From positions 32,001 to 96,000 of the forward strand of contig CAWJQC010000009.1 in NCBI GenBank assembly GCA_963844965.1: a stretch of 64,000 bases of DNA, read 5' to 3'. The notes under the pieces were generated by a model. The model was not told where the DNA came from and searched no databases. It saw nothing but the letters and a program-made list of their open reading frames with translations. Positions 11,447-61,701 of the stretch are shown one piece after another. Position numbers and translations under genes: made by a program. Positions within the stretch are counted from its first letter, which is position 1, and each line of letters begins with the position of its first letter. The DNA comes from an uncultured bacterium (lineage in GTDB: Bacteria; Patescibacteriota; Minisyncoccia; UBA6257; 2-01-FULL-56-20).

Positions 11447-13266
11447 AGCCGGCCGGAAATCGGCACCTGGAGCACAGCGGCAGCGCTACACATAGACACC
11501 AACGGCAACTCGATCTTCGATCCCGACAACCTCGATTTCACCAACCGCGACCTGGTCTACAGCTTCGGCTTCTCCACCGACAACATGTTCTCCGGCAACT
11601 TCAGCCCGATCGGGGCCGCAGCGGCCGACGGCTTCGACAAGCTGGCCGCCTACGGCAAGATCGGCACGCAATATCGTTGGATCGTCAACACCAATAACGA
11701 CGGCGTGCCGGACGATGGTGGTCAACGACCCGGCGAACATCAACGGCTTGCCGGTCGCCGGCAACTTCGACGGCAACGCCGCCAACGGCGACGAGGTCGG
11801 GCTGTTCGACGGCGCAACTGGTGGCTCGACACGAATCACGACTACAAAGTCAACACGAAAATCGTCAGCTCGTTGCGGGGTTATCCGATCGTGGGCGACT
11901 TCGACGGCGACCACAACTTCGACCTGGCGACCTACCAGGTCAACCCGGTCAACAAGTTCTTCTTCGAGTTGGAGCCGCTAGTGCCACGCCGGTGTTCAAG
12001 AGCATCGATGCCGCGAGCCAGTTCGGCTACATTGGCGTTCGCTCACGGCCGGTCGCGGCCGACATCGAGCGCGACGGCACGACCGACGTGGGGCTGTGGG
12101 TGCCGGACCGCACCGGCGCCACGGGCGACCACATCGGCGAATGGTCGTTCCTGCTCTCCAATTTCGTAGACGCAGCAAGGGCACGGTCAGTACGCTGGAC
12201 CATCAGTTTTCGCCGACGCCGTTGAGCACGACCTGCTTCGCCCGCTTCGGCAACGAGTTCCCTGCCGATGGTGGGTAATTTTGATCCGCCGCTGGCCAGC
12301 GTCAAGGCGGGGCCGGCGATTTCCGGCGTGGTGCTGACCGTTTCCGGGACGAAGCCGACGGTCACTTGGGCGGTGGACGCCGGCCGAGCATTGCCGCGGC
12401 GACGTTGTTGGTGGACGGCAAGGCGGTGGCGGTTTCCAAGCTATCGGGCAGCGCGACGCACGGCAGCTATTCCGCCGGCGCTGGCGGGGTTGAACCTGGC
12501 GGCGGGCAGTCACAGCTTTGTGATCAAGGCCACGGACTCGGCGGGCACGCCCGCCACGACGCAATGCACGGGCACGTTCGACGTCGTCGGGCCGACGATC
12601 AAGGGCGTGGCACTGTCGGTTGCGAAGGGCCTACTCACGTGGAACGCGGTTTCGCCGAACGGCATGGCCGGCGTTGCCCTGATGATCGACAACAAGTCGG
12701 TGTCGAAGATCGCGCTACGCCGTCGGAATTACGCTGGGACGATGGGTTTGCCGGGGATCGGCACCACAAGTACGTCATCACGGCCACCGACAAGACCGGC
12801 AAGAGCGTGACGCTAAGCGACAGTTTTGTCGTTACCGCCCCGACGATCAGCAACGTAGCGATAGCGGCTGCGAAGGGCTTGATCACGTGGACGGCTGCGG
12901 CTTCGCGGCGTGGCGAGTGTTGGTCTGACGATCGACGGCAAGCGAGTGTCGAACACAAGCGGTCCCAACGCGGCGGGGAACTGCTACGGGTTGGCGGGCA
13001 AGCTGCCGGCGGGCACGCACAAGTACGTCATCACGGTCACTGACAAGGGTGGCAAAGCGGTGACGCTTGGCGGTTCGTTCGTGGTGAGCAAGCCGTCCAA
13101 GGCTGTGCAGAGCACCGCGATATCGAGTGCAAGCCGGCTCTGCGTTGTCCGATTCGGCCAAGGTTGCCTGGCTTTACGATCTTGGCGGTTTGACCGGCAC
13201 ATCGTCGAGTACGACCAAAAAGAGCACGTCCGCCCAAGCCGCGGACACCGTTATTGCCCGCTACTG
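11447..13266 (+). pseudogene. High-GC FG-GAP / Ig-like repeat protein, 5'-truncated and fragmented across more than 8 frame changes
   Basis: Frames alternate (ORFs 11585, 11715, 11821, 12096, 12268, 12366 and 12910), each carrying real-looking repeat sequence (VAGNFDGN…, GDFDGDHNFDLATYQ…, KYVITATDKTGKSVTLSDSFVVTAPTISNVAIAAAKGLITW…). The reading frame is open back to the junction with no start codon. Confidence 0.5.
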
Positions 13267-13689
13267 AGCAGGGTTACAAGGATCGAGAAGCGGTTGAGGC
13301 GACAAGCGACATTGCCTTGTCGTAAGGATAGCATGCGTCGGGACGAGGGTTTCGAAATGGCACTATTTCGGGAGCGAACGCCTGGTCGCAGGATGGGTGC
13401 ATTTACTTACAGGATGTTTCGCCGTGAGAGTTCACCCGACAGGCGGTTGAGGATTTTTTTGAGGGTTGTGCCAACCATCTCCTGATTACCAATTGAGGTT
13501 TGGTGTTAAGAATAAGTGAAACTTGGCTCTCCGACTCGTCTGTATCGGGCGGGGATCGGCGAATCGGACGGGCCCGTCTGCCGGAGCCGTTGATCTTATA
13601 CCAGTCATTTAGAGTCGATCACCGCCGGCTCAGCCTTGCTCTGAGCCAGCCCAATAAGGGAGATTTCTGCCATGTGGTAACACCAAGCC

Positions 13690-16600
13690 ATGGGATTCCG
13701 TAACAACTCGCGACGTTCCTCCTCCGCCACGCGGCAGAAGTCGAAGCCATTCTCGATGCGAAACCGACACGCAGCATTTGAACCCCTCGAAGAGCGTCAG
13801 TTGCTGAGCGTCACGCTGACGGGCGTGCCGGATTGGGTCGCTAAGGGTACCGCCCCGATCGTTGCCGGCAACAGCGACAACGTTACGGGGATGACGCCCG
13901 CCACCAGCCTGGAAGTCGGCGCTGTGAACGCTCTGGCGGTCGACCCGACAAACACCAAGCATCTCTTTGCGGCCACCGTGAATGGCGGCATCTGGCAAAC
14001 CAACGACTTCACCGTGGCGAACCCGACCTGGACCACCAGCACGGATCTCATGCCGTCGCTGGCGATCAGCGCTATCGCCTTCAGCCCCACTAACAGCAGC
14101 GTCATCTATGCCGGAACGGGCAGCTACAGTTCCACGGGTGGCGGTGTGGGCGGGGCCGGCATGGGTGGCGGCTCTGTCGGGCTGTACAAGTCAATCAATG
14201 GCGGGGCCACCTGGCAGGTCATCGACCCGAATGGCATCTTCACCGGACTGCGCAGTCCGGCGAGTTGTCCCGAGACGCTTAACGGAGGCCAAACCGTCTT
14301 TGCGGCCGCGACCGATACGGCGGCCGGGAGCGGCGGCGTCTACCGCTCGGACGATGGCGGCGGCACCTGGACGCGGCTCTCGGGCGATAACGGCCTGCCC
14401 AACGCGGGCGTCACCGACCTGGTGGCTAATCCGGCCAACGCCAACCAGTTCTTCGCTGCGGTCGCCGGCGGATCCGGCGGCGCCGGCGGCACGGGCGGCA
14501 TCTTCAGCCTCGATCTATCGGTGAATACAACCTGGACGAACATTACGGGTAATATCAACACCATCAATCCCGGCGTGCTCAACAATGCGATCCGGGTGGA
14601 GTTGTCTGTCAGCATCGCCGGAGTGAATCCGATCTGGGCGAGCGTGATCAACAGCAGCGGCTTCTACGCCGACGTCTTCCGGGCGCCGAACGCCGCATCG
14701 CCCACATGGGCGGCCGTCGGACCCGGCGGTTTGCTTCCGGACGTTCTCCAAGGCAATCAGGGTGGCGTTCACGGCTCCATCGAGGCCGACCCCAACTCCG
14801 ACACGGTCGTGTACATCGGCGGCGATGCAAAGCAGACTGCCAGTCCCTTTAGCGGGTATCTTGCCCGAGGTGATTCCGGCACCAACACCTGAACCGGCAT
14901 GACCCCCGTCGATACCGTGACGGCGAACCCTGGCCTGACCGTCATCCCGACGGCTAATGGCGTCACCGCCGCCCCGCATCCGGACACCCGCAACCTGGTT
15001 TTTGCCTCTGGCGGAGTCCTGCTGGTATCGTGCGACGGCGGCGTCTACCAAGCCACAAACCCGACGGGGGCCGGGCCGGCGATGGCCTGGACTTCGATTA
15101 ACGGCACCCTCGAAGACAGCGAGTTTTACACGGTTTCCTATGACAACCGAAACACGGCAGCCACGGCCGACGATCTAATCGAGGGGGCCGCCCAGGACGA
15201 CAGCTCGAGTGAGCGGAACACGGCTGCCGTTTGGAACACCCAGACAGGCGGCGATGGCACCGTCGTGCTGGCTGACCCCATCAGCGACACACGCTATTTC
15301 TCGATGCAGAACTACTTCATGGGTAGTGTCATCGGCGGGGGCGGCGTCAATCGACCCGCCGGCACTGTCGCGGGCACGGGGGGCAAGGTTCTGAACGCGG
15401 CTAACGCCGGCACCAAGGCCGAGACGTTCCCCTTTACCCCCGCCTTCCAAATCAACCAGGGGGACATCGGCAGCGGGGCGGGCACGGCACGGGTTATCCT
15501 GGGGGGCAATCAGACGCTCTATGTCTCCAGCGACCAGGCAGCCAACTACACCTCGATCGGCGGCACAACTGCAAATAACCCCGACCCCGTGACCAACCTA
15601 ACCGCCCGGGTGATCACGATCGCGTTTGGTGCGGCGACCAATACGAATGCCTGCTACGTCGCTATGTCCGACGGCAACGTCACCAAGACGACGGACATCA
15701 CCACTGCCGGCGGTGGTTTCAGCCTCACGACCTTCCTTGCGACGGCCGGCGGTGAGGATGGCGCAGGGTATGGCGATCGATCCCAACGACGCGAATACGG
15801 TCTACGTAATCACTCTGACGCGCAGCCTGCGTGACCACGGACGGCGGCACTACGTGGGCCAACATCACGGACAACCTGGCATCCCTGTTCACTCCGGGCT
15901 TTGCCAGCAACGTGAGTCCGAGTCAGGAGCGGGGGATCACCCTGTTCAACAACGGCACGGCAACGAAGGCCGACGACGTGCTGTTGATCGGCGGTCCAGG
16001 CGGTGTCTTTCGGCGTCTGGCCGCATCGCCCCCGGGTGGCATTTGGAGCCAATATGGCGTTGATTTGCCCAACGTGCTGGTCGACAGTCTGCAATATGAC
16101 CAACTGAGCGATACGCTTCTGGCTGGCACTTTTGGCCGCGGCGACTGGACGGTTAGCAGCGTTGCCACCACAATTAACGCCGCTGGCGTGATGGTGATCT
16201 GCGGCGACCAGGATTTTGCCAACGAAGACGACACCTTTAAGCTGGTCCGCGACCCCGGCGATCCGTTGCTGTTGGATGTGTTTCAGAACAACACCACCAC
16301 TACCCCCGACTTCCAAGTGCCGTTGGCGGTGGTCCAGCAGATCGACGTCTTCGCCGCCGGCGGCAACGACAACTTGATTGTTGACAGCAGCAACGGCCTG
16401 ATCAGCGTCGCCGGCGGCATTCGTTACGACGCCGATCACGGCTGCCCGGGCGACACAGCCGCCGGAATCGGCGGTTTCGACCGCCTCACCCTCACCCAGA
16501 ATCTGACGGGTGGCCCCGCCATCGCTTCCGATCAATTGGCGCCGGGTGCCACCCCGGGCGACGGCATCAGCACCGTCAACGACACGGCCGGCAACGTCCA

Positions 16601-19223
16601 GACGATTGATTTCCAGTACCTCGAACCGGTTGTCGATAACGTCCCCTCGCCGACGTTCGATATCGCCGCCGTCCCCGGATTGGCGAGTCTGCTGGACGCC
16701 GACAACGCCATCGACTATACGGCCAGCCAGATTCTGCTTACCGGCGGCCGCGTGACGATCGACAATTTCGAGCCGATCGAGTTCGAGAACAAGGTCACCT
16801 TGGTCATCGACGCCGGGGCCGGCAGTGATGCGATCAATCTGAACAATCCCACCACGCCCACCGGCCTGGCGGCCATCACCGTCAACGGTGGCGACCCGTC
16901 GCTCGCCGATACGATCACCGTCAACGGCATCAAGGGGGCTACGGACCATTTCGTGGTGCTGCCCACGGCCGCAGGCAACGGAAACATTTTCGACACCGAC
17001 ACAGCGAGCGCCAAATATCGCCCCCGAGGTTCACTATTCCGGCATGCAAGGGGTCAACGTCGTGGGCCAAAACGCGGATGCGGACGCCTTGGCGGACGGA
17101 GGAACTGTGGGCGACGACTCGTTCACCTATAATCCTGGCACGACCGCGTCTTCCGGAGAGATTCACGGTTTCAACAGCGGTTTCTCCTTTGGGGCCTTGA
17201 CCTTTAACGGAATCACCGGCTGGGTCACGATGGGATCGCCTTTGGTGAACCTTACCGCAGGTTCGGCGACCGGCCTCCTCGTCCTCGGCGGCCACGACAC
17301 GGTGGTCATCGACGGGACGGCGGCTGACGATTCCTTCAATTGGGACAATTCTCTTGTATTCCTGCAGGTGCGAGTGGACACTGGCGGCGACCTTCACACC
17401 CCCATCGTCCTGGCCGGCGACCAAATCGTTGGATACGTTTCACACGTCATTGTGCAGGGGCTCGACGGCAACGACACGTTCAATGTGATTCCTGGGGGGG
17501 CCCCTGGCAGTGACTTGTTCGACATCCGCATCGAAGGAGGGGATTCCGATAGCTTTACCGACACACTAAACCTCAGCGGCGCCGTCGGCCCGGTGGGGGT
17601 GAATCTGGCCGACAGCACCGTGCCCTCCGACACCTCGATAACCGGCTACGGCAGCACCGTCACGCTCACCGGCGTCGAGTTGGTCCACATGGATGTCAAC
17701 GGCACAAACCCTGACGGTCACGGGCACGGCGGGCGCGGACCAGTTCAACTTCACGCCCACGGCGCTGGGCGTCGGCAGTTTCAAGGTCACGACCACCGGC
17801 GCCATCGTCGAGACCAGCCCGCAATTCACCTATACCGGCGTGGCGGCCACGGGCGTCACGCTCAACGGCGGTACGGGCGGATTCGACGTGCTGGGACTGA
17901 CGGCCACGGCCGGCAACGACACGATCAACGCCGTGCAGACCGACGCCACGCATTTGAGCTTCACCCTCAACGCGTTCACGCAGCCTTTCATTTTCGCCAC
18001 GCCGGCTTCGGTGCCAGGGGTCAACATCTACGCCGGCGCCGGCGATGACTTGATTCGCGTGAGCGTGACCAATGCGCTGGAAAGCACCACGCCGAGCGCC
18101 AGCCTGCGGTTCACGGTCGACGGCGGCGAGCCCAATGCCAGCGATCGGCTGCTCGTGAACGACGACGGCATTGGCGACCTGACTATCCTTCGCCAGGGCC
18201 CCGATGATCGAAGCGGCTCGGTGACGGTGGGCGTTCTGAATCCCGTTGTCTATGAAAACGTCGAGCGTCTCGACGTCACGCCGCTTAATCCCATCACCGG
18301 TGGGACCGGCACTGACGGCAACGGCCGCATCTTCGTCATGCATCAGAATCCGTTCGAGACCAACGACAGCCTCGCGAACGCACGGCGCAGATCGAGCGGC
18401 TGGCCGATTCGCCGACCAGCCCCACGATCGACCCGGCCGGCCTCAATACCCCTCCGTTTACGGTCAGCGGCGACGAAGATTGGTACGTCTTCCGTCCCAA
18501 GTTCACCACGGACTACCAAGTCCGCATCCTGTTCCATCGCATCGTGGCTTTGGCGAACGGCCGGCCTGGCCTGCCGGGCACCGGCGACTTGTCGCTCGAC
18601 ATCTACGACGCCAACGGGGCGTTGATCGTCTCCGGCGTGGCCGATGGAAACGGCGACAACCGCACGGCCATTTTCGGGGCCACGCCCACCGTGGCACAGT
18701 TCGCCACGATCTATATCCGCGTCAAAGGCGGAGAAGCGCCAGCTGGCGCCTCGGTCAATCTCTACGACTTCGACAACATCACCGCATTGACGTTCCCGGT
18801 GCCACCGGGGGTCGGCAACGTGGACGTGTTCGGTCCCCAGGTCACCGGCGTGGCCATCACCACCGCGCCGGCCTACAACTTGTTCGATCCCAAGGAATTC
18901 ACACATGGCGGCCTGGGCCCGACGCCATTGGTAAACGGCCTGACCATCAGTTTCAAGGATTTACCGGCACGCACCCCGGGCTTCGTCTATCCGGCCCTCG
19001 ATCCGGCCACGGCCAGCACCCGGGCACTTATGTGGTCAAGGGAGATGCCAACGGCATCGTTCAGATCTCGCAGATCATCGTGACCAACAACCCGCCGGCG
19101 GTGGGACAGGTGCCCACGGCGACGGTCCAACTGGTTTTCGCCCAGCCGTTGCCCGACGATCGCTTCACGTTGACGATCAACGACAATCTGCTCGATCCGG
19201 CCACCGCGTCTATAAATCCCTGA
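13690..19223 (+). pseudogene. Giant BNR/Asp-box repeat extracellular protein with a Planctomycetes-type N-terminus; contains 1 in-frame TGA and at least 4 frame changes
   Basis: The N-terminus MGFRNNS…MRNRHAAFEPLEERQLLSV matches the planctomycete 'LExLExRxLLS' signal-anchor motif. It has repeated SxDxGxTW boxes (SINGGATWQV, SDDGGGTWTR, TTDGGTTWANI). ORFs 13690, 14899, 15831, 16888, 17693 and 18246 are colinear pieces of one gene. Confidence 0.55.
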
Positions 19224-19275
19224 ACCGCCGCCTCCAAAATTTTCTGCGTTCTTTCCGTAAACATGGAGTAATCGC

Positions 19276-33855: not shown

Positions 33856-34632
33856 TTAATAATTCCGTTTTATTGTTTTTTCTTGCCAAGTAAATAATTC
33901 GTCATCTGTGTTGCACACTTCTTTTATCCGTTTGTTCAGGGCATCCATAGCGTCATAAACCACTCGCCAGTTTTCTCTGGTTGCTGGCGGTTTCCCGAAA
34001 AATGCTTTGTAATATCCGACTATTCCCTCATAAATTTTAGACCAATCTATGGGTTCGCTCGCTCTATACTCATACATCGCACGACAAAGAAAATGCTCAT
34101 TTTTATAGGGTGGAATTTGGCAATTTTGAGTTCCAATGTACAACAGCGCCTTATCATCGTCATATTTTATCCCCATAGATTTTAGGCTAATTTTTGGTTT
34201 TGTGGTATTTTCTATCGTTTCTTTTTCATCGCCATCCGGTTTTGGAGCGATGGCATCAAATTTTTCCGTGTCAATCTCCAAAATATAAACCGGCTTATCG
34301 TAATCCTTATCTGGAGAAGAAACGAAGTTTGGCCGCTTTGGATAGGTGGGTTGCGGCGCATGAGGCGCAAACATGTGTATCTTTTTAAGAACAACGCGAC
34401 CTTGCGCCATCCTCTCAAATCCTAATTTTATATCTTGGTCATCTAAACCCTCACTTAAGAGTTTCTCATGATATATCGGAATGTGAAGCGTTTTAATGCC
34501 AAACGGCCTCCGGTATTCCAGCGCATCATCTATTACTCCTAAAAGTATTTCATATTTATTCTTCATTTTCATTGTCATTATTGCCTTTATTTTACCACCT
34601 TTTCCGCGCTCCGGCAACATAAAATCAGACAA
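33856..34632 (-). CDS. Hypothetical protein
   Basis: 258-aa ORF with no recognised motif. Confidence 0.4.
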   Translation of the reverse strand: MSDFMLPERGKGGKIKAIMTMKMKNKYEILLGVIDDALEYRRPFGIKTLHIPIYHEKLLSEGLDDQDIKLGFERMAQGRVVLKKIHMFAPHAPQPTYPKRPNFVSSPDKDYDKPVYILEIDTEKFDAIAPKPDGDEKETIENTTKPKISLKSMGIKYDDDKALLYIGTQNCQIPPYKNEHFLCRAMYEYRASEPIDWSKIYEGIVGYYKAFFGKPPATRENWRVVYDAMDALNKRIKEVCNTDDELFTWQEKTIKRNY

Positions 34633-52517: not shown

Positions 52518-53107
52518 CTACCAGATTGTAAGCGATTCAAACCACATTTCAAGTTTCCGCCAACCTTTTTACAAAGAAGGGTCTCGTGGCGAACAGAGAG
52601 CTATTGTGGGATTGAATGGGCCGGCGCGAGGGACGGAGAATATTTTTCTCGTAACTTCTGCCCAGATTTTACGTTTTCTCTGTTATAGAAATATTGCAAG
52701 CGACCATGGAGGTAAAAATTAAAAGTCGAGCCTCCTAAAGTCGTTGAGATAAACCGCCGAAAGGCAAAAATATCTCATCGGTTGTATGTCTACACAATTA
52801 TTTGGTCCGGAATTTGCCGCCGCCTTTATGAAGGCTACTTGGGATGGTGTGCGGCTTGGTTTCGGTCTCGTTTGGCAAATCTTCGCTGCCGCCTGGCCGC
52901 TATGGCTAATCCTTATCGTCGTCACTGCCGTTGCTTATCGTCTTAGGTAATTATTGAGCTTGGCACTATGCGAACTTGTCGAAAAAAGGTCGGGGAAAAA
53001 TCTTGTTCGTGATAGACGATAATGAAATCTCTTGAGCGAAATTAGCCGCCAACGAAAATAAAAAACTGTTGGCGGCTTTTCGTTTTTATAAGGCGGGGAG
53101 GCGCGCT

Positions 53108-53497
53108 TTATTCTTTGGGAAAAGATTCCTTCACGATAATGTCGTTCTTCTCGTATGGCCCAGAACTGGGCGGCTCAATTTCATTGCAGAGCTTAGTCTT
53201 GCCATGATTATTATACAAACCAAACTCTATATCCAATCTATTGTTCTCATCTGAAACCTTGGCGTATCTATAATATGGCGACCTGCCACTTTTAAAAACC
53301 TTGTCTTTTATGCACTTATTGTTTTTATAATGATCTGATAATCTGTCCTTTATTAAGTCCTGACCGACATAAACAGGGAATCTCTTGTCTGTTTCTAGAT
53401 TGCGGTAGCCAATCAAATAAACTCCATCAAAATTTAGATTGGCAAAATTGTCATCATTAAATTTTTTTGGACCAGACCAAGTAACGGTGAACTCCAT
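53108..53497 (-). CDS. GIY-YIG nuclease domain protein
   Basis: GVYLIGYRN…KRFPVYVGQD…RLSDHY… matches GIY-(x9-11)-YIG-(x)-R-x3-H, with downstream conserved E and N. Its start overlaps the hsdS stop. Confidence 0.55.
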   Translation of the reverse strand: MEFTVTWSGPKKFNDDNFANLNFDGVYLIGYRNLETDKRFPVYVGQDLIKDRLSDHYKNNKCIKDKVFKSGRSPYYRYAKVSDENNRLDIEFGLYNNHGKTKLCNEIEPPSSGPYEKNDIIVKESFPKE

Positions 53498-53498
53498 C

Positions 53499-54869
53499 TT
53501 ATTTTTTACTCTCTATCATTTCTTCGACCTTTAGCTTGGCTTCTTCTAATAATTCTTTTGCTTTTTTGCGGGCGGCGTGAGATTCGCGAATAAGTTCGGC
53601 GATTTTTTGCTGGGTTGGTTTGGGCAAAATTGGAATTACAATATTCTCAACATCTTGATCGGTAATAGTTGGATAAGATGTGCCCGTTGTTGGTTTTTCC
53701 ATTTGCAACTTACCGATGACGGACCGCAAAACAACCTGTAGATATTCGCGCGTCGGAGACGGGACTTCAAAAACCGAGAAGGCGCCACTCGCAACAAAGT
53801 TTTTGCTCCAGCTATCGGGCACGATTGCGATGGCACCACGAGTGGGTCGAACTTTTGAAATCAACAGCTCGCCCCCGACAATTTTAATCTTGGCATTTGC
53901 GGGCAACTCTTTACCCAAGATCAAGTTACTAGAAATTGCTCCGTTTCCAACGTTAACGTCGCTAATCTCGATATATTCGTATTGGACATCGGGCGCAAGC
54001 CCTGCCCGCCTTGCTGTTCGCTTAGCAATTTTGCCAAGAGGTTTTACATTTTCCCCCAAGAGTTTTATTAACTTTTGATACTTCGGCTGGAAAAATTCGG
54101 CGTCAATGCGATTCGCTTTTTTTGCTTCGGACAAATTAACCACGCTCCATAATTCATTTTCCGATTCAAAATTCTTAAGCCCCAATTCTTCCAAAAGTAA
54201 ATTTTCTGCTTGAGAGTATAGGGCATTTGCTTGATCCAAAGTGTTCTTGGCCCCAATCACCACATTGTTGATATCTTTGACGAATGCTTCTGATGGAATC
54301 GGATAAATCAAATCATAAACATCCTGGACATTTAATTTGGGTTGAGCGTTCCCGCTAATTCTCCTCATAATCTGAGCAAAACCAAACCTAGAATTTAGAA
54401 AGGTTAACAGAAATATTTTTTGCTCCGGCATCACTTTCGAGTTTTTGAACTTGATACCGATGTTATTCTCACTTATATTACAAACTTCAAATTCTTCTGG
54501 CACGGCAGATACAATACCAATCGTGTTGCCAACTTTAGACATTATCAAGTCGAAGGGAGAAAGCTGAGATTGCTTTAGTCGGTCATTGTCCTTTTTTGAA
54601 ATATATATGAGCTCGGTTTTATCAAGAAAAAAGTTTTGCAAATCAGAAATTCTCAAAAAAGGAATACCACTACTTACATAGGCACTACTTTTTAACGAGG
54701 AGCCGAAAGGGCCACTAACAACAACAGCGCTTTCTTTTAAGGTTTGTGTTCCGCCAGAAAATGATTTTATTTCGTTTATTAATTTCAAATACTCCGGCTG
54801 ATAATATTCCGCATCCAGCCGGTACGCACCCTCCAGTTGAGATTTTTGGATGATAGAATAACTAACCAT
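53499..54869 (-). CDS. hsdS: Type I restriction-modification specificity subunit HsdS (two target-recognition domains)
   Basis: 456-aa ORF with two TRD-like halves separated by conserved coiled-coil spacers (…LEELGLKNFE…, …KAKELLEEAKLKVEEMI…). Confidence 0.8.
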   Translation of the reverse strand: MVSYSIIQKSQLEGAYRLDAEYYQPEYLKLINEIKSFSGGTQTLKESAVVVSGPFGSSLKSSAYVSSGIPFLRISDLQNFFLDKTELIYISKKDNDRLKQSQLSPFDLIMSKVGNTIGIVSAVPEEFEVCNISENNIGIKFKNSKVMPEQKIFLLTFLNSRFGFAQIMRRISGNAQPKLNVQDVYDLIYPIPSEAFVKDINNVVIGAKNTLDQANALYSQAENLLLEELGLKNFESENELWSVVNLSEAKKANRIDAEFFQPKYQKLIKLLGENVKPLGKIAKRTARRAGLAPDVQYEYIEISDVNVGNGAISSNLILGKELPANAKIKIVGGELLISKVRPTRGAIAIVPDSWSKNFVASGAFSVFEVPSPTREYLQVVLRSVIGKLQMEKPTTGTSYPTITDQDVENIVIPILPKPTQQKIAELIRESHAARKKAKELLEEAKLKVEEMIESKK

Positions 54870-55523
54870 TTATTTTCTATTCTCTTTTTTGAATTTAACC
54901 AGCTTGGCCATTATTGAATCATTTAAAACTATAGCTTTTTCAATAAATCTTTCGCAAAGCCTTATCTCTTTTCGCATTGTTTCCAGCCACGTCTTTTTGG
55001 TTAAAGATTTTTTTGATATTGGCCTAAAACTCCTGTCATAACCAGAAACAGCGGTGTCATAATAAATACGGTGAGTTAACATCTTTCGCTTTACTAATAT
55101 CTCATGCATAACTTTGTCTTCGTTGAATTTCTCTAGATCTTTTTTAACCGAAGATTTTCTGACCATAGAATCTTCAGTAAGTTTATTGAATAAAGAAGCT
55201 TTTTCTGAAAATTGCAGATCAAGAGAGGCGTTTATAAGTTGGCAAATTTTTTCCCTATACGAAAACGCTCTCAACCAAAAATTTTCCAGGTGGTAGCCCA
55301 GGGATTCAAAATCAGTTTCCTGATGAATCGGTGATAGCCAGCCCTTGCCTGTCATAATTATTTTCGCAGTCCTTTCACAAAGCAGGTACGTCCTGGCTGC
55401 CCTACTATAAACGTCAATCAAATCGGATATTTCTTGACGGACCTCATTGTGATAGGCTTTCGCTTTCTTGGGAAACAATCGCCTATCAAAATCAAAAAAT
55501 GGTTGCCCTTTTGTTTTTTTCAT
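54870..55523 (-). CDS. Unknown 217-aa protein embedded between hsdM and hsdS (possible HEPN/Abi-like effector)
   Basis: Contiguous with hsdS (no gap) and 11 nt from hsdM. It is alpha-helical and basic, with an R-x4-H arrangement (RKMLTHRIYY). Confidence 0.5.
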   Translation of the reverse strand: MKKTKGQPFFDFDRRLFPKKAKAYHNEVRQEISDLIDVYSRAARTYLLCERTAKIIMTGKGWLSPIHQETDFESLGYHLENFWLRAFSYREKICQLINASLDLQFSEKASLFNKLTEDSMVRKSSVKKDLEKFNEDKVMHEILVKRKMLTHRIYYDTAVSGYDRSFRPISKKSLTKKTWLETMRKEIRLCERFIEKAIVLNDSIMAKLVKFKKENRK

Positions 55524-55534
55524 TATTTTTTATC

Positions 55535-56842
55535 TCAAAAATCGAATTTTTGTTCCTTGGTAAATTTCACGAATGCCTCGGCGATTTCGTCCAAGTCGTG
55601 GTCAAGCACCTTACGGCCTTTAGAGCCGTGCACATAACTACCGTTCGCGTCTTTTTTATAAATATAGTCACCAGAATTATCTTTGCTACCTTTTTTAGAG
55701 ACCGCCATGAAAATTGGATAATCCTTTTGCGGTTTGCCAGTGTCGCCGCCCCATTTTTGTAAAAAGAGCACGCTTGTTTTTGTGCCGGTATGCGGCTTGA
55801 ACGTGTTACCGTGAAGCCCGACGACGGCAAGAATACGCGCTTTTTCAAAAAGCCACTCACGGATATATTCCATGTTGGTGTTGTTAAGCACGCCTTGCGG
55901 CAGAACGATTGCCAAGCGGCCGCCGGGACGGAGCATGTCCAATGCGCGTTCAATAAATAAAATGTGTCGCTCAACGTTATTGCGAAGCTTACCTCCTTCT
56001 TTTTTTGCCAGTTCGTACTGGCGCAGAAGTCCCTGCTCCGGATTTTCTCCGGCGAAGGGCGGATTCGTGAGCAATATATCAAAATTCAAATGCCGATAGG
56101 TCAGATGATTTTCCTTGTCGCTTTCGCTATTATCCAAGGTTTGCAACAGAGGTTTAAGCGCCACGCGTGCTTCTTCCGCCTCCGGACCAGTCCACTCCCG
56201 CGAATCCAACGAATCACGTTTGAAAATATGGTGCTTGCCATCGCCAGCGATAAGCATTAATGCCTGCGATATCCGGCGCATGTTGTCGTCAAAGTCAATG
56301 CCAAAAAGATATTTTGCGGCGTAGGATTTTTTCGCCGCTTCGGTTTTTGAAAAATTGTCCCAGACATGATACATCGCGTGAAGGAGGAATCCGCCAGAGC
56401 CGCATGCCGGATCTACCACGTATTCGTTTTCTTTCGGGCTGAGCATCTTTACGCACATTTTAATGACATGCCGCGGCGTGAAATACTGCCCCTTTTTTCC
56501 CTTAGAAACTTCGGTGATGAGATGCTCAAACGCTCCATCCACAATCTCGTATTCGCCCTGCCCAAGCTCAAATAAGCGAATATTTTCCACGAACGGCACG
56601 CAGATGTTAAGGCGTGCGGCGGTAAGCTTGATTTTATCCGATGGTTCGAATGTGTCGGGCCACTCCTTGACCGCTTCCTTAAAAAGCCCGTTTACAACCT
56701 CGTAGGTTTTTTCGGCGTCTTTATATCTTCTAAACAACACCTCCCTACTTTCCCTTTCTCGGATAGCCATTTGCTCATCGTAGAGCTTGGCGTAAATAAG
56801 CTTGAAGATTCTCTTCAAAAACATTACCGCCGGAGCCGGCAA
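55535..56842 (-). CDS. hsdM: N6-adenine DNA methyltransferase, HsdM-like
   Basis: …GQYFTPRHV…DPACGSGGFL…NPPFAG… The true start may be the internal Met at 56770, which would avoid the overlap with the upstream gene. Confidence 0.85.
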   Translation of the reverse strand: MPAPAVMFLKRIFKLIYAKLYDEQMAIRERESREVLFRRYKDAEKTYEVVNGLFKEAVKEWPDTFEPSDKIKLTAARLNICVPFVENIRLFELGQGEYEIVDGAFEHLITEVSKGKKGQYFTPRHVIKMCVKMLSPKENEYVVDPACGSGGFLLHAMYHVWDNFSKTEAAKKSYAAKYLFGIDFDDNMRRISQALMLIAGDGKHHIFKRDSLDSREWTGPEAEEARVALKPLLQTLDNSESDKENHLTYRHLNFDILLTNPPFAGENPEQGLLRQYELAKKEGGKLRNNVERHILFIERALDMLRPGGRLAIVLPQGVLNNTNMEYIREWLFEKARILAVVGLHGNTFKPHTGTKTSVLFLQKWGGDTGKPQKDYPIFMAVSKKGSKDNSGDYIYKKDANGSYVHGSKGRKVLDHDLDEIAEAFVKFTKEQKFDF

Positions 56843-57488
56843 GCGCTAATTCTTCTATACGCTTGACGACTTTTATGAAGTCAAACTTCGGGGTCAAATC
56901 GCTCCACGTTTTCTTAATTTCAAACAAATCGTCCACTGTTTGATCGGCCGTTGGAATCTCGCTCAATGATTCATATTCTTTCGGATAGGGACGATATAAA
57001 ATTACTTTATCCGTGCCGTTAGACCAGATGCCGATCTCCGACCCCTCCGCGCTCAAATACGCTTTTAATTGTTCCTGCCCTTTCTTTTCGCTGGGCGCCT
57101 TAACTTCGACAATAATGTACGGTGTGATTTTATCTTTCTTGTAAACAACGATGTCCGCGGCCTTTGCGTGAATTTCTCGTCCAAAGTGGATGCTTTTTTC
57201 TGTTTCCATTCGCTCAAACGGATATTTGTAGTTGGTGTGAAGTTTATATAACCAGAGTTGGCGGACGATTTCCTCCGGCCTGCCTGCGTTTTTCTTGGCA
57301 TCAAAAACTAAACGTTTTTTACCGCTTTTCAGGTCGGCGATGAAAAAACGGCTTGGTTCGTCTTCGGTAATTTCGAGCGCCGCGTTAAATTCTACGCCCT
57401 CAAACTCTTTGAGACCGTAGAGCAGCTCGGTATCCTTAAAAATCTTTCCAATTATTTCCTCTGCTTTGTTTTGTTTTTTGGTGGGCAT
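56775..57488 (-). CDS. Standalone PD-(D/E)xK nuclease resembling the HsdR N-terminal domain (no helicase motifs)
   Basis: …AADIVVYKKDKITPYIIVEVKAPSEKKGQEQLKAYLSAEGSEIGIWSNGTDKVILYRP… gives the D…EVK PD-(D/E)xK layout of HSDR_N-type domains. It is only 237 aa, with no GxGKT/DEAH motif. Confidence 0.55.
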   Translation of the reverse strand: MPTKKQNKAEEIIGKIFKDTELLYGLKEFEGVEFNAALEITEDEPSRFFIADLKSGKKRLVFDAKKNAGRPEEIVRQLWLYKLHTNYKYPFERMETEKSIHFGREIHAKAADIVVYKKDKITPYIIVEVKAPSEKKGQEQLKAYLSAEGSEIGIWSNGTDKVILYRPYPKEYESLSEIPTADQTVDDLFEIKKTWSDLTPKFDFIKVVKRIEELALAGSGGNVFEENLQAYLRQALR

Positions 57489-57489
57489 A

Positions 57490-58131
57490 TTATCTTATCG
57501 GTTGCCAATAGTTATTTTTAAGCACCGAGATAATTTTTCCTTTGAGTTCCATCTCGTGGGTAAAAGGAATCAGCTCGTACTTTGGGTTTTCGGGCTTAAG
57601 GTACACGTATGGCGGTTTGTCGTCGGACATGAATCGCTTTATCGTGCCCTCGTCGCCGATTTGGGCATAGACTATTTCACCGGATACGAATTCTTTTTTT
57701 GTTTGAACTAGCACGGCGTCGCCGTCGTCAATACCCGCGTTTATCATCGAATCGCCGGAGACTTTGAGCATAAACACCTCTTCCGCCAATCTGGAAATCT
57801 CTTGAGAAACTGGCTGCCATTCACCGGAAATTTCTATCGACTGAATCGGAGCCCCGGCGCTTGTTATGCCAAGAAAGGCCGCGAGGGGCGGTCTACCGAG
57901 CATCTCATACCCCAAAGGCAATATGGCTAATCCTCTAGCAGCTCCTTCTTTTCTTTGTATTATTTTATTTTTCTCAAGCTTATTGAGAAGATCTAAAACT
58001 GATTGATTTGAGGAAACGCCTAGACTTTCTCGCATTTCATCAAAAGTCGGTGGATGGCCATCGCTCTTAATATATGAGTAAATAACCTCTAAAAGCTGCT
58101 TTTGTCTTGGTGTTGTTATATTTTTCATCAC
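57490..58131 (-). CDS. lexA: LexA repressor
   Basis: N-terminal wHTH, Ala-Gly cleavage site (ITSAGAP), S24 peptidase Ser (GDSM) and Lys (TIKRF). The stop lies 1 nt before the start of the downstream nuclease gene. Confidence 0.85.
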   Translation of the reverse strand: MMKNITTPRQKQLLEVIYSYIKSDGHPPTFDEMRESLGVSSNQSVLDLLNKLEKNKIIQRKEGAARGLAILPLGYEMLGRPPLAAFLGITSAGAPIQSIEISGEWQPVSQEISRLAEEVFMLKVSGDSMINAGIDDGDAVLVQTKKEFVSGEIVYAQIGDEGTIKRFMSDDKPPYVYLKPENPKYELIPFTHEMELKGKIISVLKNNYWQPIR

Positions 58132-58135
58132 TTAC

Positions 58136-58164
58136 ATTATACCCGACTATATATTCAGTTACAA
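58136..58164 (-). promoter_or_regulatory. Putative lexA promoter, TTGTAA-N17-TATAAT
   Basis: On the minus strand, TATAAT lies 8 nt upstream of the lexA ATG, and TTGTAA lies 17 nt further upstream. Confidence 0.4.
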
Positions 58165-58301: not shown

Positions 58302-58904
58302 CTAGCGCACCCTTACCGCACCTTTGCGCAAAATTTTCAGATGCCCGTCATTAATCGCCACGAGCGTTGAGGGTTCGGAAACGCACCGGCCGGTGTCAAT
58401 ATAAAAATCCACCTTGTCTCCGAAATAGCGCCGTGCTTCGCGAACCGTCCGCGCCGGCTTCTCACCTTCCCAATTGGCACTCGGAGCCACAAGTGGCCCG
58501 ACATTAACCAATAGTCGTCTTAGCCAATAGGGCTTAGGCAGACGGAATGCCAGAGTTTTAGTCCCGCGATGAAGGTATTTAAATTTTTTAATTTTTAATT
58601 TTGAATTTCCAATTTTCAATATCACGCTTACCTTGTTGGGCCAAACCCGATTCAAAATTTTCCTCTCTTTAGCTCCGATTTTCACGCCGAATTTTTTTGG
58701 GTCGGCCAGCGAAGCGATAAGAACGATCATCGGCTTCCGCGGATTCCGCCGCCTCAACTTGTAAATCCTTTCAACCGTTTTCTTGTTCAAGGCCGAGCCG
58801 ACGATGCCATAAATGGTGTCGGTAGGCAAAATTCCCACGCCGCCGGCAAGCAGTATATCTTTTGTTTTTTTATCTTTATCTAATGAACGGCTGATCTTGG
58901 GCAT
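58302..58904 (-). CDS. tsaC: L-threonylcarbamoyladenylate synthase TsaC/YrdC
   Basis: …ILLAGGVGILPTDTIYGIVGSA…; the start is assigned to the internal Met (MPKISRSL). Confidence 0.75.
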   Translation of the reverse strand: MPKISRSLDKDKKTKDILLAGGVGILPTDTIYGIVGSALNKKTVERIYKLRRRNPRKPMIVLIASLADPKKFGVKIGAKERKILNRVWPNKVSVILKIGNSKLKIKKFKYLHRGTKTLAFRLPKPYWLRRLLVNVGPLVAPSANWEGEKPARTVREARRYFGDKVDFYIDTGRCVSEPSTLVAINDGHLKILRKGAVRVR

Positions 58905-58960
58905 ATTAGCTCTTGACCCGCAAAATTGCGGTTTGCTTGAAATTATCGTACAATACAAAG

Positions 58961-59788
58961 ATGCAAAACACAAAACAAACGATAACCATTGCGGTCGTTT
59001 TGATAGTGGTCGTCGCGGTTCTCTGGTGGGTGTTCGGGACACAGAACGGTGCCCAAAATACAGCCGCTCCGCCCGGAAACGGCTTGCCTACAGCCGGCGT
59101 TACCGTGGAAAGCTCGTCTACCGCCTCTTCTACGTCGCCGTCAGTACCAACGACGGCGACCCAACCGAAATCCCCGACTACAGCCGCACAACCCAAATCG
59201 TCAGCGTCAATTGCCATAATTCATCCCGCCTCCGGAGAAAAATTCGTCGTAGGCCAGAATAATCTCATCCAATGGAGCAAAGAGGGCGGGGTCAGCGGCA
59301 GTATCTACCTTGTGAACAGCGCCGACAAATCAACCGTTGGCTGGATAAATTCCGAAATTGCCGTACACCAGACATCGTATACTTGGGACACACGCGACGT
59401 TTTTTTGAGCCGTTCCAATCCGTCCAAGAAAGATATCGTCCCGGGCACATATATAATAAAACTTCAGTTTGATTCCGCTCGTCTCGCCACGGTATCGAGC
59501 GCGCCCTTCCAGATAATTTATCCGAGCCAAGTGCAAACGCCGTCTTACGCAATCAGCATCAAAAACTTCACATTTTCGCCGGACAATATCACCGTAACCA
59601 AGGGAACGCTCCTCGTTTTCACGAACAACGACGCGGTTACCCACCGGATAATTCTGCAAGGATTCAGTCCCTTCACCGTCACGCCCGGCGCAACTTTAAC
59701 CTTTGACACCTCGGTTCTCGCGCCGAGCCCCTACAGTTTTTACTCCGACGTTTACTCCACGATGCGGCTCACGGTTACGGTGCAGTAA
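58961..59788 (+). CDS. Membrane-anchored secreted protein with a C-terminal cupredoxin-like domain
   Basis: TM helix, a Thr/Ser/Pro-rich linker, then a beta-sandwich region (…ISIKNFTFSPDNITVTKGTLLVFTNNDAVTHRI…). Confidence 0.5.
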   Translation: MQNTKQTITIAVVLIVVVAVLWWVFGTQNGAQNTAAPPGNGLPTAGVTVESSSTASSTSPSVPTTATQPKSPTTAAQPKSSASIAIIHPASGEKFVVGQNNLIQWSKEGGVSGSIYLVNSADKSTVGWINSEIAVHQTSYTWDTRDVFLSRSNPSKKDIVPGTYIIKLQFDSARLATVSSAPFQIIYPSQVQTPSYAISIKNFTFSPDNITVTKGTLLVFTNNDAVTHRIILQGFSPFTVTPGATLTFDTSVLAPSPYSFYSDVYSTMRLTVTVQ

Positions 59789-59803: not shown

Positions 59804-60406
59804 GTGAAATTACTGAAGAGGGTTGATTCGCTGGAAGTCAAACGCTGTTTTGTCGTATCGCAATACGGAAGGGGCAGGAAAGATAAAAGGGACATACCGA
59901 CGTTCACCAAGCGAGCGTTCGCAAGAAGACTGAGTCGGGCGAAAAATTGGGCCAAAAAACTTTCCCAAAAACAACTGGATCGCATCATCGCCTCCGATTG
60001 GAAGCGCCGCCTCCGCGCTTACGATAGCGCCAGCTGGTGGCTAGGACAAGTAAATATAAACGAAGTCGGAGTATGGAGACGTGCCGGCGGCCTGCCGCTC
60101 TCCTGGACTAATTGCTCGCTTCAAGAAACGGCGAAAAAAGTCGCGAAAGCCCTTCCGGCTGGAGGCCGCTCAAGCGCCTTAAAAACGATACCAAAAATTT
60201 TGAAAACCTCAATTGGCTTCGTGCAAAAAGAAAAATTACTGTTTCCGATCGTTTTTCAGGGTGGCACTGGCACGCGAGGCAGAAAGGGGTTGAAAAAAAT
60301 GCGCGGCGACATTGATAACGGCTGCATGAGGGCTATCGCGCTCGCTATGACGGGCAAAAAATCTTTTAAGGCGTATATCGGTGTCAAGCTTCAACCTCAC
60401 AACTAA
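59804..60406 (+). CDS. Hypothetical basic protein
   Basis: 200-aa K/R-rich ORF. Confidence 0.35.
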   Translation: MKLLKRVDSLEVKRCFVVSQYGRGRKDKRDIPTFTKRAFARRLSRAKNWAKKLSQKQLDRIIASDWKRRLRAYDSASWWLGQVNINEVGVWRRAGGLPLSWTNCSLQETAKKVAKALPAGGRSSALKTIPKILKTSIGFVQKEKLLFPIVFQGGTGTRGRKGLKKMRGDIDNGCMRAIALAMTGKKSFKAYIGVKLQPHN

Positions 60407-61701
60407 AATCTGTCCCCGATAAACGCTCTGCCGCGCAGTTTTTTGTGATAGCTTATCGCAAAGCGGTGGGCTTCGTTCCTGACTCTTACGAGCGTGTTTT
60501 TGCTTACGCCGCGCGGGATTTCGCCGATTATGTCGTTGCGCTTGCGCTCTGGGCCCTTGGCGATGCCAACTATAGGAATTTTCAGTCCGAATTCCGCGAG
60601 CACGCTCTTCGCGGCGTTCACCTGTCCCCTGCCGCCGTCAATTAAAATCAAGGCGGGCAATGGCCAATTATTATGGAAGCGCCGGCGCAAAATTTCTTTG
60701 AGCATGCCAACATCGTCGGATTGAGTTATGGTTCTGATTCTGAATTTACGGTATTCGTTACTGTCGGGTTCATTTCTGCTGAACACAACCATAGAGCCGA
60801 CGGCCGAAGTGCCGGAGATATTGGAGATGTCATAACCCTCGACTCTCGTGGGTGGTAGGTGGCGAGTAGTAGGTAGTAGGTCGGAATCAGAGATCAGGGC
60901 AACGTCGCGGATGTGCTGCAACGCGAAAATCTGGCGACGGAATTTTTCGGCTTTTTCAAATTCAAGGTTTTTGCTTGCGGCGGTCATCTCTTTTTCCAGA
61001 TTCCGCAGAATCTGTTTTTTCTTGCCCCCGAACAACAATTTGAGATTTCTGATGTTTTTCATATAATCCCCGCGGCTTATCGCGCCGATGCACGTGCCAG
61101 GGCAAAGCCCCAGTTCGTATTCAAAACATGGACGCCTGCGGCTCAACCAACCCGAAGCAACAAATTTATCCGAATGCTCCGAATTTTTATTTGTAGATTC
61201 GGATGTAATCCGTAGTTTCGGATCGCACGCATCGGCATGAGTGCTCCACGGAAAAATCCGCCGCAGGATTCGTAACGCCTCGCGGATGCTTGACGCCGAA
61301 GTAAACGGACCATACTGCTTCGCCGCTGACTTACGCGGACTAGACGCAGACTTAACTTCTCGTCCACGGACGAGCAGCACACGCGGGAATTTTTCTTTTG
61401 TAATTTCCACGTACAAAAAACTTTTATCATCCCGTTCGCGCACATTGAAGGGCGGCGAGTATTTTCTTATAAGCTCCGCCTCCAAAATCAACGCTTCAAG
61501 CGCCGTATCGGTTTTTCTATGGTCAATTTTTTTGATTTTTCCGACCAATGTTTCAATGCGCGTGTCGTGCGCCCGCATGAAATAACTTGAAACCCGCCGG
61601 CGCAAATTTCCAGCCTTGCCGACATAGAGAATATGGCCGCCTCCGTCCCTGAACAAATAAACGCCCGGCTCGTCGGGCAGGTTTTTATACGAATTATCCA
61701 T
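60403..61701 (-). CDS. uvrC: Excinuclease ABC subunit C (short form lacking the C-terminal HhH domain)
   Basis: GIY-YIG (GVYLFRD…ILYVGKAGNLRRRV), UVR motif, and the RNaseH-like endonuclease domain (…GYDISNISGTSAVGSMVVF…YRKFRI…). Confidence 0.8.
   Translation of the reverse strand: MDNSYKNLPDEPGVYLFRDGGGHILYVGKAGNLRRRVSSYFMRAHDTRIETLVGKIKKIDHRKTDTALEALILEAELIRKYSPPFNVRERDDKSFLYVEITKEKFPRVLLVRGREVKSASSPRKSAAKQYGPFTSASSIREALRILRRIFPWSTHADACDPKLRITSESTNKNSEHSDKFVASGWLSRRRPCFEYELGLCPGTCIGAISRGDYMKNIRNLKLLFGGKKKQILRNLEKEMTAASKNLEFEKAEKFRRQIFALQHIRDVALISDSDLLPTTRHLPPTRVEGYDISNISGTSAVGSMVVFSRNEPDSNEYRKFRIRTITQSDDVGMLKEILRRRFHNNWPLPALILIDGGRGQVNAAKSVLAEFGLKIPIVGIAKGPERKRNDIIGEIPRGVSKNTLVRVRNEAHRFAISYHKKLRGRAFIGDRF

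Follow-up and report, generated by a model that had tools for sequence, protein, structure and literature searches.

A gene cluster on the minus strand of a 64,000-nt stretch of contig CAWJQC010000009.1, from an uncultured bacterium of the Patescibacteriota, is best read as one LexA-autoregulated operon. The whole stretch is called the window below, and all positions refer to it. The operon would consist of a promoter with operator, lexA, a restriction-modification (R-M) gene (RM), a HEPN gene, a specificity gene (S), a GIY-YIG gene and a terminator. RM and S would form a Type IIB-like pair, with RM frameshifted in the window and with a cargo slot between the two genes. This reading is considered probable as a whole. 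In sequence comparisons, the order lexA-RM-slot-S recurs in hundreds of species of the candidate phyla radiation (CPR), and the HEPN and GIY-YIG cargo appears particular to the lineage of the window. A first-pass annotation of the same DNA had described a non-canonical Type I-like locus, in which two small nucleases flanked a methyltransferase and specificity core.

Organisation of the gene cluster

The cluster comprised the following features.

58136-58164, minus strand: lexA promoter, with the -35 box TTGTAA at 58164-58159, a 17-nt spacer and the -10 box TATAAT at 58141-58136; 10/12 in the promoter scan
58142-58159, minus strand: predicted lexA operator ACTGAATATATAGTCGGG, 18 nt, occupying the promoter spacer; position-weight matrix score 26.3
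57490-58131, minus strand: lexA, 213 aa counted from GTG; translation probably begins at the ATG at 58128
55535-57488, minus strand: RM, predicted to be a single gene, read as open reading frames (ORFs) of 237 aa (56775-57488) and 435 aa (55535-56842); repaired product 650 aa
56807-56816, minus strand: RM frameshift site GAAGAGAATC, one base surplus relative to five intact relatives (GAGGA-AAT)
54870-55523, minus strand: predicted HEPN gene of the Cthe_2314 family (PF18730), 217 aa, in the variable slot between RM and S
53499-54869, minus strand: predicted S (specificity) subunit gene, 456 aa, with two target-recognition domains (TRDs); PADLOC Specificity_I PDLC03095, PF01420
53108-53497, minus strand: gene of a standalone protein of predicted GIY-YIG fold, 129 aa; G25-V-Y27, Y43-V-G45, R52, H56, E91, N105
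53037-53082, minus strand: terminator-like hairpin 3' of the last gene, with a 10-bp GC-rich stem GCCGCCAAC.../...GUUGGCGGC; -25.7 kcal/mol, z = -3.09 by RNA folding

The stop codon of lexA and the start codon of the 237-aa ORF were separated by 1 nt (TAA-T-ATG). The 237-aa and 435-aa ORFs overlapped by 68 nt, and 11 nt lay between the 435-aa ORF and the HEPN gene. The HEPN gene and S met without a gap (TAA-ATG), and S and the GIY-YIG gene were again 1 nt apart (TAA-G-ATG). The first-pass annotation had given the ORF coordinates and junctions exactly, as six translationally coupled minus-strand genes. Its count was one too high, because the 237-aa and 435-aa ORFs appear to be one gene with a +1 frameshift. 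The promoter and the hairpin that it had placed at the two ends were both recovered, and the site directly 5' of lexA was the top sigma-70-like match on the minus strand in a promoter scan of the window. No promoter-like element was found before RM in the window. Terminator-like sites numbered 9 against 7.1 expected, the internal ones all lay in coding sequence, and no credible terminator, of lexA itself or otherwise, was found within the cluster. The absence of a motor subunit was confirmed for the 64-kb window, where no HsdR-like ORF was present and the largest ORFs were DnaK, a GH130 enzyme, DnaB and CysRS. Likewise, no HsdR (about 1000 aa, with an SF2 helicase/translocase motor) adjoined the CPR loci examined.

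The guanine and cytosine (GC) content was 0.358 for the HEPN gene, 0.404 for S and 0.364 for the GIY-YIG gene, compared with 0.44-0.475 for lexA and RM. These low values fit a recent exchange of the distal part of the operon.

Linkage of lexA and RM in CPR genomes

Relatives of RM were searched with one genome per species. A relative was present in 395 genomes, and the best 80, with 59-90% identity, were examined. The related loci, denoted by L numbers where needed, cover about 8 kb on each side and 1.27 Mb in total. The 80 genomes belonged almost all to Patescibacteria and represented many classes. About 70 of them had a lexA homologue (49-81% identity) directly upstream of RM and in the same orientation. 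The genomes without an upstream lexA were contig-edge cases, the complete Parcubacteria genome L044 and bins of Omnitrophota, Nitrospira and Proteobacteria. The lexA stop and the RM start were -1 to 25 nt apart in most loci and about 400 nt apart in five, which held a small membrane-protein ORF in between. Conservation of the neighbourhood across CPR genomes had been proposed as a check on the first-pass annotation; the order lexA-RM-S was kept and the content of the slot varied.

The LexA protein of the window appears complete. It scored 144.8 bits on the TIGR00498 lexA model (cutoff 110.95) and also matched PF01726 and PF00717. It comprises a winged-helix DNA-binding domain, an S24 peptidase domain and a Ser/Lys dyad, with the cleavage site at Ala92-Gly93, GDSM at 126 and IKRF at 164.

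Upstream of lexA, the block TTGAC(-35) CCaGAaTAAATAGTCGGG TATaAT(-10) was present in 69 of 73 related loci, and the operator was a perfect palindrome, CCCGACTAwwTAGTCGGG, in several loci. A matrix built from the related lexA sites gave 73 matches in the 1.27 Mb, all at lexA promoters, and none before RM, the slot genes or S. The short gaps, the kept gene order, the operator at lexA only and the full LexA make a single LexA-autoregulated transcript, which we infer for the operon, the most economical reading. Co-transcription with lexA, as first proposed, is strongly backed by this comparison. A second operator-like site in the window, at 34013-34023, was judged a chance match; it lies in coding sequence and lacks promoter context.

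Further observations concerned the lexA region. In six loci (L001 at 7628-7999, L007, L030, L048, L070 and L081), lexA and RM were separated by a 123-aa ORF, for which two membrane helices are predicted. It had no Pfam or PHROG match. Kinship with the 129-aa GIY-YIG protein was considered and rejected, as the ORF encodes a two-transmembrane-helix protein and was not matched by the GIY-YIG family hidden Markov model (HMM). Among 73 CPR loci, 34 had a DnaA-box-like sequence, TTWTCCACA, within the 160 nt preceding lexA, far more than expected by chance; it was placed 20-40 nt upstream of the -35 box (L008-L086; e.g. L014 about 7285, L055 about 3610). Several other CPR loci had TTTGATATA at this position, and the window copy has neither. 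The lexA operon may be co-regulated by DnaA. In the window (58128-58141), the -10 box of lexA ends 7 nt before the probable ATG, with a similar distance in most related loci, suggesting that the lexA mRNA is leaderless or nearly so.

Identity of the restriction enzyme

By profile and sequence comparison, RM and S were assigned to the BcgI/BsaXI-like Type IIB R-M systems, with the corresponding activity predicted. RM starts with a PD-(D/E)xK nuclease (HSDR_N_2) at its N-terminus, which a helical connector joins to a gamma-class N6-adenine methyltransferase. The nearest solved structure by sequence was RM.BsaXI (8w0p), with E = 3.4e-32 for the single sequence and 4.7e-41 for the family profile. 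The profile aligned nuclease positions 65-135 to 41-112 of BsaXI and methyltransferase positions 222-585 to 233-627. Alanine substitution of E73, D90, E105 or K107 abolishes cleavage by BsaXI (PMC11997821). In the profile alignment to 8w0p, these residues paired with E97, D112, E128 and K130 of RM, which were invariant in 14 sequences. Methyltransferase motif I was DPACGSGGF and motif IV was NPPF in the RM family.

The S protein, correctly called hsdS in the first-pass annotation, gave a full-length two-TRD match to PADLOC Specificity_I PDLC03095 (18-454 of 473 positions, E = 9.5e-42). The S gene was located 3' of RM in all 75 loci, and the S subunits were 31-50% identical across loci. In Type IIB systems of this kind, the separate two-TRD S subunit is required for both activities. 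BcgI-like enzymes are defined by a 2RM:1S composition without a motor (PMC3874165). The missing HsdR is expected and no anomaly, because a BcgI/BsaXI-like architecture never has a motor. The methyltransferase scored 52.7 bits on TIGR00497 hsdM, compared with a cutoff of 242.75. A standalone, nuclease-free HsdM of about 500 aa, as in classical Type I systems, was not found; the methyltransferase was fused to PD-(D/E)xK in all homologues. The Type I-like design is replaced here by a predicted Type IIB pair.

Distant RM relatives with 31-45% identity were present on viral or prophage contigs of IMG/VR (L223-L245), usually with S about 65-470 nt after RM. No lexA directly upstream and no slot were found beside the RM relatives on these contigs. 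The plain pair of RM and S therefore seems widespread, and what characterises the CPR clade is the lexA head together with the large slot.

A single-base frameshift in RM

The two ORFs of 237 and 435 aa are predicted to be two parts of one 650-aa RM gene. PADLOC profile PDLC03034 (672 positions) spanned both, its positions 55-225 being matched by the 237-aa ORF and 220-668 by the 435-aa ORF. Taking one A out of GAAGAGAATC fused both frames into a 650-aa protein and gave back ...NVFEEIFKLIYAKLYDE..., which is invariant among homologues. More than 100 homologues of the repaired protein were found, with 645-664 aa (one with 775 aa) and 73-90% identity, at a coverage of 98-100% save for one shorter match at 94%. 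Both PF13588 (HSDR_N_2) and PF02384 (N6_Mtase) matched the repaired RM and each of the 120 homologues listed. The junction peptide ELALAGSG-N-FEE-FK--YAK was invariant in 14 aligned sequences. At the DNA level, alignment with five intact relatives showed one surplus base in the window, and the gene was a single uninterrupted ORF in 81 of 81 other loci. No further stops occurred along the remainder of the repaired frame, and the frameshift falls in the connector that links the nuclease domain to the methyltransferase domain. RM reads as two ORFs because of this single-base frameshift. What had been called a standalone HsdR-N-like nuclease is accordingly the N-terminal domain of the predicted fusion, and the supposedly separate hsdM is its C-terminal part. 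The possibility had also been raised that the small nuclease ORFs were decayed fragments and that hsdR lay elsewhere; the 237-aa ORF does appear to be part of a broken gene, and no hsdR was present in the window.

The cargo slot and the HEPN protein

The gap between RM and S ranged from 2 nt to 2.7 kb across loci. It held 87 proteins of at least 90 aa, which fell into 55 BLAST clusters. Pfam matches were DUF3800 (6), NYN (5), Trypsin_2 (3), DUF4145-HEPN (3), PBECR3 (3) and RnlA toxin (3), followed by AbiEii-like AAA_21, PemK/MazF, GIY-YIG, OLD-TOPRIM and others. PADLOC matches were PDC-M04A, NYN, LmuA, mad3 (two CPR slot proteins), AriA, AbiLi, GajA, PtuA, Old and NucC. RM and S enclose a hypervariable cargo slot for different defence or toxin genes. 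Genes 3' of S in the related loci were mostly unrelated housekeeping genes, which indicates that the conserved unit ends at S.

In the window, the slot holds the 217-aa gene. It had been suspected of being HEPN from an Rx4H motif, and the suspicion was borne out by a match to PF18730 (E = 1.8e-11, 44.8 bits, gathering cutoff 27.1) and by conservation of R146-KMLT-H151 in four full-length homologues. The protein is assigned to the Cthe_2314 family of HEPN proteins and is a predicted RNase. Homologues were rare, with five in 5.8 billion clusters. A syntenic relative has one of them, with 94% identity, in the corresponding slot; the remainder of those examined were outside R-M loci. No ATPase domain was found in the protein with Pfam, NCBIfam or PADLOC, and PHROGs gave no match for either the HEPN or the GIY-YIG protein. 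A survey of HEPN proteins from 2013 lists no genomic association for Cthe_2314 (PMC3710099).

The GIY-YIG protein and its association with lexA

The 129-aa protein belongs to a small family; about 120 cluster representatives were found among 1.84 billion proteins. G25, Y27, Y43, V44, G45, R52, H56, N60, E91 and N105 are near-invariant in this family. Pfam GIY-YIG was reached by 33 of 61 distant members, and the protein of the window scores under the Pfam thresholds. On the strength of the conserved catalytic residues, the earlier GIY-YIG call is retained, and the protein is a predicted nuclease of this fold. The family HMM found no member in the 80 CPR loci, so that its presence as the last gene of the lexA operon of the window is unusual. 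The viral contigs also held no relative.

Six other contexts of the family were available. The GIY-YIG homologue was part of a lexA operon in five of them, four times directly after lexA and once after an intervening 77-aa gene. Four of these five directly preceded CBASS (cyclic-oligonucleotide-based anti-phage signalling) or other defence genes. The sixth context adjoined a ubiquitin-like system.

Two-gene cassettes of LexA and a 124-128-aa GIY-YIG protein were located in L088 (5330-6375), L096 (4340-5387), L097 (4346-5387), L098 (4328-5375) and L221 (4076-5378). The four cassette LexA proteins that were scored reached 131-146 bits on TIGR00498, above the equivalog cutoff. The cassettes of L088, L096, L097 and L098 are from non-CPR genomes and precede CBASS genes (CD-NTase + Cap15, SAVED-HNH + SMODS) or DUF7380/EMARD genes. 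The cassette lexA promoters carry CGACTAC-N9-GTAGTCG palindromes.

Neighbouring regions of the window

Just 5' of lexA and on the same strand, the window carries sua5/yrdC and uvrC (58302-59042 and 60403-61701). UvrC has a GIY-YIG domain of its own, which shows no sequence relation to the 129-aa protein. The region 11500-19250 adjoins grpE and dnaK and has a GC content of 0.58-0.66, compared with about 0.47 elsewhere. It comprises nine plus-strand ORFs of 180-433 aa without a Pfam match and looks like a foreign island.

Comparison with known systems

The RM and S pair resembles those Type IIB enzymes whose S subunit is separate (BcgI, BsaXI, BaeI) in its fusion of a PD-(D/E)xK nuclease to a methyltransferase, its two-TRD S subunit and its lack of an ATPase motor. 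It differs from BsaXI in length (650 aa versus 916 aa) and lacks the C-terminal knob/paddle part. It differs from the Type IIB enzymes in general by the operon headed by lexA, the cargo slot between RM and S and the frameshift in the window. The methylation-associated defence system (MADS) was the closest match in NCBIfam, where the top models for RM and S were MAD2 and MAD5. MAD2 shares the HSDR_N and methyltransferase layout and a similar length. However, the scores were far below the cutoffs (275.3 versus 720 for MAD2, 164 versus 400 for MAD5), and no other mad gene was present in the window.

The rlo genes of Campylobacter exemplify Type I R-M loci into which an abortive-infection gene is embedded. 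The prr locus of E. coli likewise holds the gene of a latent RNA-targeting toxin, PrrC, inside an R-M operon beside M and S (PMC3874165), and R-M operons with HEPN genes have been described (PMC3710099). In contrast to the prr and rlo loci, no HsdR is present here and genomes differ in what the slot contains. The predicted toxin also differs from PrrC and RloC, being a small standalone Cthe_2314 HEPN protein and not an anticodon nuclease fused to an ABC ATPase.

Control of immune or toxin genes by a damage-sensing repressor is known from E. coli, where LexA represses SymE beside the hsd genes (PMC1891008), and from the WYL/CapW/BrxR regulators of CBASS and bacteriophage exclusion (BREX) systems (PMC9122588, PMC9122601). 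The present cluster is similar in being headed by such a repressor, but here a full LexA is the first gene of the same operon as the R-M enzyme. The 129-aa protein shares the GIY-YIG fold and the catalytic Y, Y, G, R, H, E and N with the N-terminal domain of UvrC, R.Eco29kI, T4 EndoII and I-TevI. In contrast to these, it is minimal, without a DNA-binding extension, and belongs to a rare family whose genes are typically found just after lexA.

Taken singly, the enzyme class, the occurrence of HEPN genes within R-M loci and the control of defence in response to damage are already known. A LexA-headed R-M operon in CPR bacteria or LexA-type CBASS regulators were not described in the searched literature, which excluded Sanchez-Osuna, Barbe and Erill 2017 (Environ Microbiol 19:3465; SOS network of Patescibacteria), the likeliest prior account; papers citing it held nothing specific. 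Relative to that literature, the Type IIB-like operon headed by LexA with its exchangeable defence slot and the cassette of LexA and a mini-GIY-YIG protein elsewhere are new. The first-pass annotation had not recognised its arrangement as a described system. This stands for the combination, but the class of RM and S is known and the layout lexA-RM-slot-S recurs in CPR genomes.

Points against the reading and alternative explanations

Several observations weigh against the proposed operon as a functional, SOS-controlled R-M system. The first group concerns the enzyme. The RM family is about 270-290 residues shorter than BsaXI at the C-terminus, and this includes the paddle, so that cutting on both sides of the site is not assured. 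The AlphaFold2 model of the repaired RM, built with a 14-sequence alignment, had a mean pLDDT (predicted local distance difference test) of 49.5, which is too poor for fold comparison, and the identity of RM rests on sequence and profile matches. Since its gene is frameshifted, the enzyme may be dead in the organism of the window. An independent assembly of the same population, L087, was 99.96% identical over 4.7 kb. It ends 70 nt before the frameshift site. At 241-260, L087 has an A5 run where the window has A6 (56493-56498, in the methyltransferase part), which gives a second, different frameshift in RM. This difference is either an assembly error or a population-level inactivation.

The alternative with the best standing, which is possible but not favoured, is that the frameshift is a sequencing or assembly artefact, with RM intact and active and the remainder of the operon as proposed. 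The other operon genes are intact, the rest of the RM frame is free of stops, and the 1-nt indel of L087 in the A6 run indicates that these data contain indel errors or heterogeneity. However, the site (GAGAAT) is no long homopolymer, the usual place for such errors, and L087 stops too early to give a second opinion.

The second group of counterpoints concerns regulation. We infer co-transcription and SOS induction from gene order and motif conservation alone. The available DNA (window, related loci and metagenome scan) did not show the operator at recA, uvrA or other SOS genes. A metagenome scan with the perfect operator palindrome CCGACTANNTAGTCGG gave 80 loci, mostly terminator hairpins, chance matches in coding sequences and one TetR operator, and the genuine sites were lexA promoters alone (L109, L110, L143). 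As the operator was seen at lexA promoters only, LexA could be a dedicated controller and not the global SOS repressor. A LexA-type protein with a private operator, comparable to C proteins, CapH/CapP or BrxR, is judged rather unlikely. The restriction of the operator to lexA promoters in the 1.27 Mb of related loci is in line with it, as is the position of the sole other near-match of the 64-kb window within coding sequence. A second LexA clade, moreover, heads CBASS and other defence operons with a GIY-YIG partner. Against it, LexA reaches the equivalog cutoff, and the promoters of recA and uvrA lie outside loci that span about 8 kb on each side.

The identities of RM and LexA to those of the window were uncorrelated across loci (Spearman 0.11), which implies that the two genes do not simply travel as one unit. 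This also fits an explanation in which lexA is a mere neighbour and the RM-S pair preferentially integrates downstream of it or persists there by chance, with its own promoter and without SOS control. The flanking genes differ among genomes, and distant relatives of RM and S occur without lexA on viral contigs and in non-CPR bins. However, a promoter would not fit into the gap of -1 to 25 nt that most loci have, no promoter- or operator-like element precedes RM, and order and strand are kept in many CPR classes. Mere neighbourhood is therefore considered unlikely.

A new motor-less Type I-like system, composed of a free 237-aa PD-(D/E)xK nuclease, a separate HsdM, HsdS and the GIY-YIG protein, would require the split of RM to be real and functional. 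Both ORFs exist as read, the break is near the boundary between nuclease and methyltransferase, and an ATG 7 codons into the 435-aa ORF would allow two polypeptides. Nevertheless, the break cuts the helix ELALAGSGxNVFEEIFKLIYAKLYDE, which is invariant in homologues, a single extra base is its cause, none of the 81 other loci is split, and no ribosome-binding site is evident before the 435-aa ORF, which makes this explanation very improbable. Just as improbable is a mainly non-antiviral role of lexA-RM-S in damage-induced DNA processing, such as cutting imported or damaged DNA for nucleotide salvage in organisms unable to make nucleotides: RM is 59-90% identical across many CPR classes, which is atypical of fast-evolving defence genes, and Type IIB enzymes excise short fragments (PMC3874165), but S diverges freely, as expected in specificity arms races, and the slot holds recognised defence and toxin families.

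Proposed function and implications

In the proposed LexA-autoregulated operon, LexA bound to the operator in the promoter spacer would hold expression of the whole operon low and limit its own synthesis. This low level would suffice for methylation of the chromosome. DNA damage, or single-stranded DNA generated by phages, would activate RecA and lead to self-cleavage of LexA at Ala92-Gly93, upon which the restriction enzyme, the toxin and the nuclease would rise jointly. Induction should not be able to unbalance cutting and protection, because restriction and modification would reside on one polypeptide in an (RM)2S complex. By analogy with PrrC in the prr locus, the HEPN protein would probably serve as an abortive-infection back-up.

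A wider and more tentative idea, which we hold as a possibility short of an expectation, is that LexA operons serve immune systems in general as regulatory heads and landing pads. The operon of the Patescibacteria, with an ancient coupling of LexA to a BsaXI-like enzyme and a toxin-swapping slot, would be one such case, and the cassette of LexA and mini-GIY-YIG protein before CBASS and other genes in other phyla would be another. If this were true, organisms that possess very few regulators would have DNA damage hard-wired as a primary trigger of their immunity. The LexA and GIY-YIG pair before CBASS operons points to a class of regulators of which no description was found.

The analysis also corrects annotation, as genes named "Type I M protein" or "N-6 DNA methylase" in these genomes are predicted bifunctional Type IIB-like enzymes. 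To our knowledge, CRISPR is absent from most CPR bacteria, and the regulation of their defence is poorly understood. A restriction enzyme behind LexA in hundreds of species provides a testable model, in which immunity would be kept low, boosted by damage and varied by exchange of toxin effectors through the slot. The recurrence of this LexA-headed layout in hundreds of CPR bacteria suggests how such tiny cells may switch on immunity.

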